Origin: a virus
Virus record (IMG/VR): IMGVR_UViG_3300032053_007845
Length of the DNA: 11,019 nucleotides
Direction: 5' to 3' (one strand)
The notes beneath the pieces were generated by a model. It was not told the origin of the DNA and searched no databases. It saw only the letters and a program-made list of their open reading frames with translations. Position 1 is the stretch's first letter. The number at the start of each line of letters is the position of its first letter. Positions 9,014-9,595 of this stretch are shown one piece after another. The position numbers were made by a program, and so were the translations under genes.

Positions 9014-9595
9014 CTACTTCCGCGCTTCCCGCGGCCACTGAAAGCCGAAGTCCTTGCGTCGGAGCTTCGCCATGCGCCCGTCTGGGTGGTGGAAGACGAA
9101 GCCTTCGTATATCGCGTGTTCGAGCAGCATGCGGAACCCCTCGTACGTGCGAATCGTCTGGATGATGACCTGCCCGTGCTTGACGAGCACGTACCGCTCG
9201 AGCTTCTCGGGGTTCTTCCCGACCTTCGGGCCGCAGAGCTCGTACGTGCCGTCCTCGTAGGTCGCCAGCGACATGCCCGTGGTGCCCTCGAAGACCGCTC
9301 GGTGCATCCAGTCCTCGGGCGCGGTGTCGCTGATCGGGAGCCAGCCGGGCCAGTGCCCGGTGATCTCGTCAGGCTTGTCCTCGCACGGCGTCCAGCCCTC
9401 GGGCGGGGTCTTGCCGTTCTTGGCGTCGTAGCGTTTGTAGAGCACGCCTGCGCGCACGAGGCACGCCGTGCCGTCGTACTTGCGCGTGGCGATGCCCTCG
9501 CCCTCGAGCACCCACTCGCAGCCGGGTGTGGGCTCAGGGAGGCAGAGTGCCTTGTTGTTCGGGTCCATCTTGAAAACTCGCGGGATCTTTTTCAT
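9014..9595 (-). CDS. Minimal covalent nucleotidyltransferase of the ATP-dependent RNA/DNA ligase type (~194 aa).
   Basis: Motif I KxDG (ATRKYDGTACLV), motif IV-like EGFVF (YEGFVFHHPDG) and motif V-like Lys cluster (MAKLRRKDF) occur in canonical order within ~190 aa, the size of a stand-alone ligase adenylyltransferase domain. The start is trimmed to the ATG at 9595-9593 (MKKIPRVFKMDPNN...), which overlaps the RHH gene's TGA as ATGA. Confidence 0.55.
   Translation of the reverse strand: MKKIPRVFKMDPNNKALCLPEPTPGCEWVLEGEGIATRKYDGTACLVRAGVLYKRYDAKNGKTPPEGWTPCEDKPDEITGHWPGWLPISDTAPEDWMHRAVFEGTTGMSLATYEDGTYELCGPKVGKNPEKLERYVLVKHGQVIIQTIRTYEGFRMLLEHAIYEGFVFHHPDGRMAKLRRKDFGFQWPREARK

Follow-up and report, generated by a model that had tools for sequence, protein, structure and literature searches.

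Positions 9014-9595 of a viral DNA stretch of 11,019 nucleotides, referred to here as the window, carry a very small gene with the motifs of a ligase-type nucleotidyltransferase. This raises two questions, namely what kind of enzyme such a short protein represents, and what it does for the virus that encodes it. The reading frame is located on the minus strand and is intact, comprising 193 codons plus a stop codon, with an ATG start at position 9595 and the stop codon at 9014-9016. An alternative TTG start at 9640 would add 15 residues to the protein. As the homologs all begin with MKKIP, the start was assigned to the ATG at 9595, and the TTG was ruled out given that every homolog starts at the MKK. 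A 510-aa open reading frame on the plus strand (8240-9772) spans the ligase region. It was taken as an antisense artefact of the GC-rich sequence (60-65% G+C), because homologs of the minus-strand frame number in the thousands and because an antisense frame of this kind recurs as a false 'neighbour' cluster.

Comparison with a 76%-identical relative yielded a dN/dS ratio of 0.24, indicating purifying selection on the gene. The ratio of 0.69 determined against the homolog P0001 was discarded, because P0001 is a mosaic that is identical over residues 1-136 and divergent thereafter. After residue 136, P0001 switches to a C-terminal segment similar to that of the homolog P0003, corresponding to residues 137-193 of the ligase (9014-9187, minus strand). 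This mosaicism suggests that recombination took place inside the ligase gene, between motifs III and IIIa. A search for promoter-like or terminator-like sites between 8100 and 10100 did not reveal any.

Profile searches with the protein gave a uniform answer to the first question. Pfam returned PF17720 (RLIG1, RNA ligase 1; formerly DUF5565) with a score of 36.9 bits, above the curated gathering cut-off of 25 (E 2.5e-9), and this was the sole family obtained even at E<=10. The models for PF09414 (RNA_ligase), DNA ligases (DNA_ligase_A_M) and capping enzymes did not match at this threshold, so that neither of the two Pfam families with which the first-pass annotation had proposed to compare the protein accounts for it. 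NCBIfam likewise gave no match. PHROG 14301, which is designated 'RNA ligase', aligned with residues 1-185 over profile positions 1-184 of 186 (E 2e-61). In addition, a sequence search of the PDB yielded real matches only to 9c6l and 9c6m, entries named 'RNA ligase1' (E 6e-12), which are the structures of the RLIG1 enzyme of Yasminevirus (Hu et al., PNAS 2024; PMC11494293).

The predicted structure is in line with these assignments. An AlphaFold2 (AF2) model built on 41 sequences reached a mean pLDDT of 93.8, and in a Foldseek search against the PDB the top 12 matches were all chains of 9c6l or 9c6m (E 6e-12 to 1e-9; query-normalised TM 0.73-0.80), the best one being 9c6l (E 6e-12, TM 0.80). 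RNA ligases account for all of the best structural neighbours. The model consists of a single high-confidence domain that comprises the nucleotidyltransferase fold only, and the 193 residues contain neither an OB fold nor any other second domain. The proposal of a stand-alone ligase-type core that forms a covalent lysyl-NMP and lacks an OB or other appended domain is thus borne out by the single-domain model and its TM of 0.80 to 9c6l.

The family to which it belongs is a large one: at least 7965 homologs of the ligase were obtained from the database, and at E<=1e-3 the family comprises 1749 clusters at 50% identity. Relatives are found on 367 viral contigs and in 524 species-representative genomes, which cover many bacterial phyla and include some archaeal MAGs. 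All of the best 120 of the at least 7965 homologs carry PF17720. These 120 proteins are 178-319 aa long with a median of 190 aa. The first-pass annotation was right in describing the protein of about 194 aa (193 aa) as a core alone, while a length of this kind is nothing special in this family. Twenty-five phage records contain a copy, most of them already annotated 'RNA ligase', among them 14 Mycobacterium, 5 Ralstonia and 2 Cellulophaga phage records. The identical protein is present on four metagenome contigs, and the nearest non-identical database protein, which is a mosaic, is 89% identical. Taken together, the gene product belongs to RLIG1 (C12orf29/DUF5565), a previously described family of very small ATP-dependent RNA ligases, and is an ordinary representative of it. 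It does not constitute a new kind of enzyme; it is an individual, uncharacterised protein from a family that is known and for which structures have been solved.

Motifs I (KYDG, with K39), IV (EGFVFHH, with E164) and V (AKLRRK, with K177), on which the first-pass annotation was founded, were located by hand in the intact 193-aa frame and are real. The alignment to 9c6l further revealed R55 (motif Ia), E119 (motif III) and H140 (motif IIIa), which had not been listed before. The residue numbers of the Yasminevirus enzyme given here are those of the published work; the PDB chain index in the alignment equals the paper's residue number plus 1, as is visible from the K-to-M difference between 9c6l and 9c6m. 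The nucleotide- and metal-binding residues reported for the Yasminevirus enzyme are K73 and D75 (I), R89 (Ia), E174 (III), H195 (IIIa), E240 (IV) and K253 (V), of which R89 contacts the ribose 3'-OH, and mutation of the motif residues markedly lowers both adenylylation and ligation (PMC11494293). All seven are present in the ligase, in the same order as K39, D41, R55, E119, H140, E164 and K177. The coordinates of the motifs and of the neighbouring genes are compiled in Table 1.

Table 1. Features of the ligase gene and of its surroundings, given as positions in the window.
Feature	Position	Strand	Basis or remark
RLIG1-family RNA ligase gene (PF17720/DUF5565), 193 aa, nucleotidyltransferase core only	9014..9595	-	Pfam, PHROG, AF2, Foldseek
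Motif I, K39-Y-D-G; K39, predicted AMP-accepting lysine	9470..9481	-	aligns with the 9c6l Lys that is Met in the K73M mutant 9c6m
Motif Ia, R55 (Yasminevirus R89)	9431..9433	-	alignment to 9c6l; kept 121/121
Motif III, E119 (Yasminevirus E174)	9239..9241	-	alignment to 9c6l; kept 121/121
Motif IIIa, H140 (Yasminevirus H195)	9176..9178	-	alignment to 9c6l; kept 121/121
Motif IV, E164-G-F-V-F-H-H (E164, Yasminevirus E240)	9086..9106	-	alignment to 9c6l; E kept 121/121
Motif V, A-K177-L-R-R-K (K177, Yasminevirus K253)	K177 at 9065..9067	-	alignment to 9c6l; kept 121/121
57-aa ORF, Lys-rich N-terminus	9592..9765	-	called as gene on five contigs
229-aa gene, phrog_4243 (unknown function), weak ATP-grasp-like fold	8213..8902	-	111 bp downstream of the ligase gene
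144-aa 2H phosphoesterase, two HxT motifs	6451..6885	-	PF08302, 25.3 bits vs cut-off 23; 2.1 kb downstream of the ligase gene, same strand
909-aa major-vault-protein homolog	3729..6458	-	MVP_shoulder E 1.1e-26, Vault_3, weak SPFH
NUDIX hydrolase	3271..3654	-	Pfam; 5.4 kb from the ligase gene

Conservation was counted in an alignment of the query with the best 120 of the at least 7965 database relatives (121 sequences). The KxDG lysine, whose lack of conservation in orthologs would have counted against the first-pass annotation, is kept in 120 of the 121 sequences, as is D41, and G42 is kept in all of them; thus, each of the seven catalytic residues is retained in at least 120 sequences. The two histidines that follow motif IV had been considered an unusual variant. 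The alignment speaks against this view, since 115 of the 121 sequences retain H169 and 117 retain H170, and motif IV of the Yasminevirus chain 9c6l reads EGVVLH, with a His at the first of the two positions. Judged by this alignment, the His-His pair after EG-x-V-F is a normal feature and a hallmark of the family. A Gln at the position of the motif I lysine (YQWDG) occurs in only one of the 120 best homologs, P0017, which is encoded on a 50-kb NCBI contig and, by its sequence, may be an inactive copy.

With human and Yasminevirus RLIG1 the protein shares PF17720, the fold (TM 0.80) and an architecture that is confined to the nucleotidyltransferase domain and lacks an RNA-binding domain. The identity to the Yasminevirus enzyme amounts to 22-25%. 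However, the 9c6l chain comprises 277 aa compared to 193 aa here, and relative to this chain the ligase lacks about 34 residues at the N-terminus, about 21 residues between motifs Ia and III, and about 21 residues between motifs IIIa and IV. In the prokaryotic and phage form, a fold already described as minimal by its discoverers (PMC11494293) is present in a compact version. The short bacterial and phage RLIG1 proteins (PHROG 14301; 'DUF5565 family protein' at NCBI) fall into the same length class, possess the same motifs including the His-His pair, and are likewise encoded by stand-alone accessory genes. The proteins of cultured phages, e.g., Mycobacterium phage Paola gp78, Ralstonia phage RP12 ORF259 and Cellulophaga phage phi10:1 gp057, display 36-46% end-to-end similarity. 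In comparison with this group, the ligase differs only in its surroundings, which here comprise tRNA arrays, a 2H phosphoesterase, a second ligase and a vault-protein homolog.

The next-best structural neighbours are represented by the RNA ligase of Naegleria gruberi (NgrRnl), which we take to be a member of Rnl5, the family that includes DraRnl of Deinococcus. NgrRnl and the other Rnl5 ligases carry an extra N-terminal domain. The chemistry via a covalent lysyl-AMP is common to both groups; however, the similarity to NgrRnl is distant (Foldseek E ~0.04, TM 0.40), the NgrRnl chains comprise about 340 aa, and PF09414 is not matched by the ligase. Rnl5 ligases are the next-best structural neighbours of the Yasminevirus enzyme as well (PMC11494293). 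The DraRnl-like affiliation put forward in the first-pass annotation, or any other membership in PF09414, was therefore rejected, as was membership in the ATP-dependent DNA ligases (PF01068 plus OB domain), because at E<=10 Pfam yields no PF09414, DNA-ligase or capping-enzyme match; moreover, the protein is a single domain of 193 aa. The appearance of a true PF09414 member is exemplified by a gene of the same genomic region, located on contig L001 (54 bits).

As a functional analogue we propose T4 Rnl1, the phage enzyme that reseals the anticodon loops of tRNAs by 5'-to-3' RNA ligation. It differs in two respects. In contrast to the ligase studied here, T4 Rnl1 possesses a C-terminal RNA-binding domain (PMC11494293), and it works together with a kinase-phosphatase (Pnkp), whereas a Walker-A kinase was not found in the window and contig L001. 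Compared with T4 Pnkp, end healing would here need the 2H phosphodiesterase instead, whose gene lies 2.1 kb from the ligase gene.

The second question, concerning the role of the enzyme, leads to its genomic context. The window itself contains neither tRNA genes nor any other Rfam family. One of the four metagenome contigs with the identical protein, L001 (16.3 kb), matches the window over its whole length with 99.4% identity and extends beyond it. L001 harbors 15 tRNA genes in two arrays (159-946 and 3365-4020 of the contig), which end about 260 bp past the right edge of the window (11019) and are thus separated from the ligase gene by about 1.7 kb. The set comprises tRNAs for Thr, Arg (four), Met (two), Val, Leu (four) and Ser (three), and 11 of the 15 genes were confirmed by Rfam. 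The arrays are interrupted by the gene for the second RNA ligase (PF09414; 971-1825 of the contig), an HNH gene and a homing-endonuclease-like ORF.

Immediately upstream of the ligase gene, the TGA stop codon of the 57-aa ORF overlaps the ATG of the ligase gene (ATGA), so that the two are probably translationally coupled. The 57-aa protein did not match any entry in Pfam, PHROG or the PDB, and a ribbon-helix-helix-like identity, which had been considered for it, is accordingly unsupported. The ORF is kept only in the closest relatives; at the corresponding position, contig L172, which encodes the 76%-identical ligase, has an unrelated gene of 87 codons. On L172, the ligase gene also overlaps by 4 bp a downstream gene for a MazG-like nucleotide pyrophosphohydrolase (1111-1539 of that contig); the window has the NUDIX hydrolase gene at 3271-3654 in its stead.

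Among the other neighbours, the 2H phosphoesterase is related to the cyclic phosphodiesterase (CPD) domain of fungal tRNA ligase (PF08302). Across 28 homologs, its HxT motifs show no variation in either His or in the second Thr, and hardly any in the first Thr. It is a candidate 3'-end healing partner of the ligase. The 2H protein has only 34 database homologs, one of which is encoded on a 131-kb TubZ-encoding phage-like contig (L169), about 6 kb from a Ro60/TROVE gene. When the vault homolog was compared by tblastn with 50,697 GenBank phage records, only three metagenomic 'huge phage' records were hit (LR756500/1/3, 462-735 kb), with 38-42% identity. Because these GenBank phage matches are all 'huge phage' records, the sequence similarity suggests that the source of the window is a large phage. 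Viral major vault proteins have been described in a 2023 preprint (10.1101/2023.11.10.566534).

We then asked how far these surroundings recur at other RLIG1 loci. A tRNA gene is located within 1.5 kb of the ligase gene in 8 of 80 viral loci, compared to 3.3 expected by random placement (P=0.006), and tRNA genes have been reported in more than 20% of DUF5565 neighbourhoods (PMC10364804). A BLAST comparison of 14 neighbour proteins, i.e., 13 from the window and the PF09414 ligase of L001, with 83 phage or viral RLIG1 loci did not yield any match. Correspondingly, all-against-all clustering of the genes within about 4 kb at 80 viral and 80 genome loci did not reveal a consistent neighbour family, and returned just lineage-level synteny, terminase and portal genes, and RtcB in 3 loci. 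In the latter, found among the 80 viral contigs, the gene for an RtcB-type (3'-phosphate/5'-OH) RNA ligase is located no more than about 2 kb from the RLIG1 homolog, e.g., at 12844-14058 of contig L030. In the cultured phages, the ligase gene stands alone among hypothetical genes. As the neighbours in the window do not recur at other RLIG1 loci, the linkage to the 2H enzyme may be coincidental.

Considering these data, it is highly probable that the gene encodes an RLIG1-family ATP-dependent ligase for RNA ends with a 5'-phosphate and a 3'-OH, with its chemistry assigned by homology, and that it most likely reseals broken tRNAs or other RNAs in infection. [quoted passage not shown] In this step, R55, E119 and H140 would hold the ribose, whereas D41, E119, E164 and K177 would contact the metal and the phosphates. 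The AMP would then be moved to the 5'-phosphate end of the RNA, generating AppRNA, and attack by the 3'-OH end would seal the break and release AMP. As the ligase is devoid of a separate RNA-binding domain, the choice of the substrate must lie in the core.

The first-pass annotation had left the substrate open. The published work on the family narrows it considerably, since members including bacterial and phage enzymes are ATP-specific and join 5'-phosphate to 3'-OH RNA (PMC11494293). Human RLIG1 adenylylates itself on K57 with ATP only, and the human and Yasminevirus enzymes as well as 'several' bacterial and viral homologs, including ones labelled 'C. phage' and 'R. bacterium', seal halves of tRNA-Lys in the anticodon loop in vitro (PMC11494293). 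RLIG1 is reported to be specific for the joining of RNA halves that bear a 5'-phosphate and a 3'-OH (PMC11494293). The human enzyme is furthermore linked to RNA integrity under oxidative stress.

Less certain than the chemistry is the biological role, which would be the resealing of tRNAs or other RNAs broken in infection, for instance after cleavage by a host anticodon nuclease. Because the tRNA arrays are only about 1.7 kb away, and because the same accessory region encodes a second RNA ligase as well as the 2H cyclic phosphodiesterase, RNA resealing is the most likely job of the enzyme, and from this context tRNA repair emerges as its most likely role. In line with this notion, the authors of the RLIG1 study took T4 Rnl1 and Pnkp as a model and predicted that the homologs from viruses act in tRNA repair (PMC11494293). 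A more elaborate version, which we regard as quite unlikely, is that the ligase is one piece of a split heal-and-seal tRNA repair pathway of the fungal and plant (Trl1-like) style, which would shield the tRNA arrays of the phage against anticodon nucleases of its host. In this scheme, 2',3'-cyclic phosphate ends would be opened by the 2H enzyme and 5'-OH ends phosphorylated by an as yet unrecognised kinase, after which the RLIG1-type ligase, the PF09414 ligase or both would seal the break. A candidate for the kinase is the adjacent 229-aa protein with its faint ATP-grasp-like fold. A Walker-A (P-loop) scan for a 5'-OH polynucleotide kinase did not yield any candidate among the real genes of the window and the 16-kb contig L001, so that the complete pathway stays a proposal.

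The evidence for resealing also has to be weighed against other functions. The enzyme might be a true RNA ligase that serves the housekeeping of phage RNAs, i.e., maturation or quality control of the tRNA arrays, RNA circularisation or stress repair, rather than counter-defence. The adjoining arrays, interrupted as they are by HNH and homing-endonuclease-like genes, would fit such a function, as would the connection of human RLIG1 with RNA integrity under oxidative stress and the frequent occurrence of homologs in bacterial chromosomes of many phyla without phage context (524 species genomes). However, the one phage 5'-to-3' RNA ligase that has been worked out, T4 Rnl1, acts in counter-defence, as summarised in the RLIG1 report (PMC11494293), and we consider a housekeeping function rather unlikely. 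An enzyme that mainly stops after the second step would be an RNA 5'-adenylylating (Ap2N 'capping') enzyme, with the nearby NUDIX hydrolase as its decapping partner. This idea draws on the finding that human RLIG1 turns 5'-phosphate RNA into Ap2A- or Ap2G-capped RNA in vitro and that such caps are removed by the NUDIX enzyme NUDT12 (PMC13598233), on the presence of a NUDIX gene in the window, and on the overlap of the ligase gene with a MazG-like pyrophosphohydrolase gene on L172. Yet AppRNA is a normal ligation intermediate, members of the family complete the ligation of tRNA halves efficiently (PMC11494293), and RLIG1 is behind only ~20% of the Ap2N-RNA in human cells (PMC13598233). Moreover, the NUDIX gene is rather remote from the ligase gene and is not a recurrent neighbour. 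Capping is therefore less likely than a sealing ligase, and as the main activity it appears improbable.

The covalent nucleotidyltransferase motifs are the same in DNA ligases, which could point to a minimal enzyme sealing nicks in DNA or DNA/RNA hybrids. Such an activity is very improbable, given that DNA_ligase_A_M is unmatched even at E<=10, that the model has no OB domain, and that the closest structures are RNA ligases throughout; in addition, the RLIG1 report presents the enzyme as RNA-specific, acting on 5'-phosphate and 3'-OH halves (PMC11494293). The KxDG motif is also common to capping enzymes, and the homolog P0017 has a Gln for the motif I lysine, which brings to mind a GTP-using guanylyltransferase of the capping type or a catalytically dead relic. 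Neither is easily reconciled with the labelling of human RLIG1 by ATP only (PMC11494293), with the intact set of catalytic residues and the dN/dS of 0.24, or with the lack of an OB domain and of a match to a capping-enzyme family, and this reading is hardly credible. We thus return to the sealing of RNA breaks as the preferred function of the enzyme.

Previous publications already cover the RLIG1 family with its structure and chemistry, its distribution over phages and bacteria and its link to tRNA genes, and the discovery value of the ligase itself is small. The value of the locus is modest and lies in the surrounding set of RNA-related genes of a tRNA-rich, uncultured and probably large phage. 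The locus is a reasonable test case for the counter-defence role predicted for viral RLIG1 enzymes, and is also where one might search for the missing RNA kinase.
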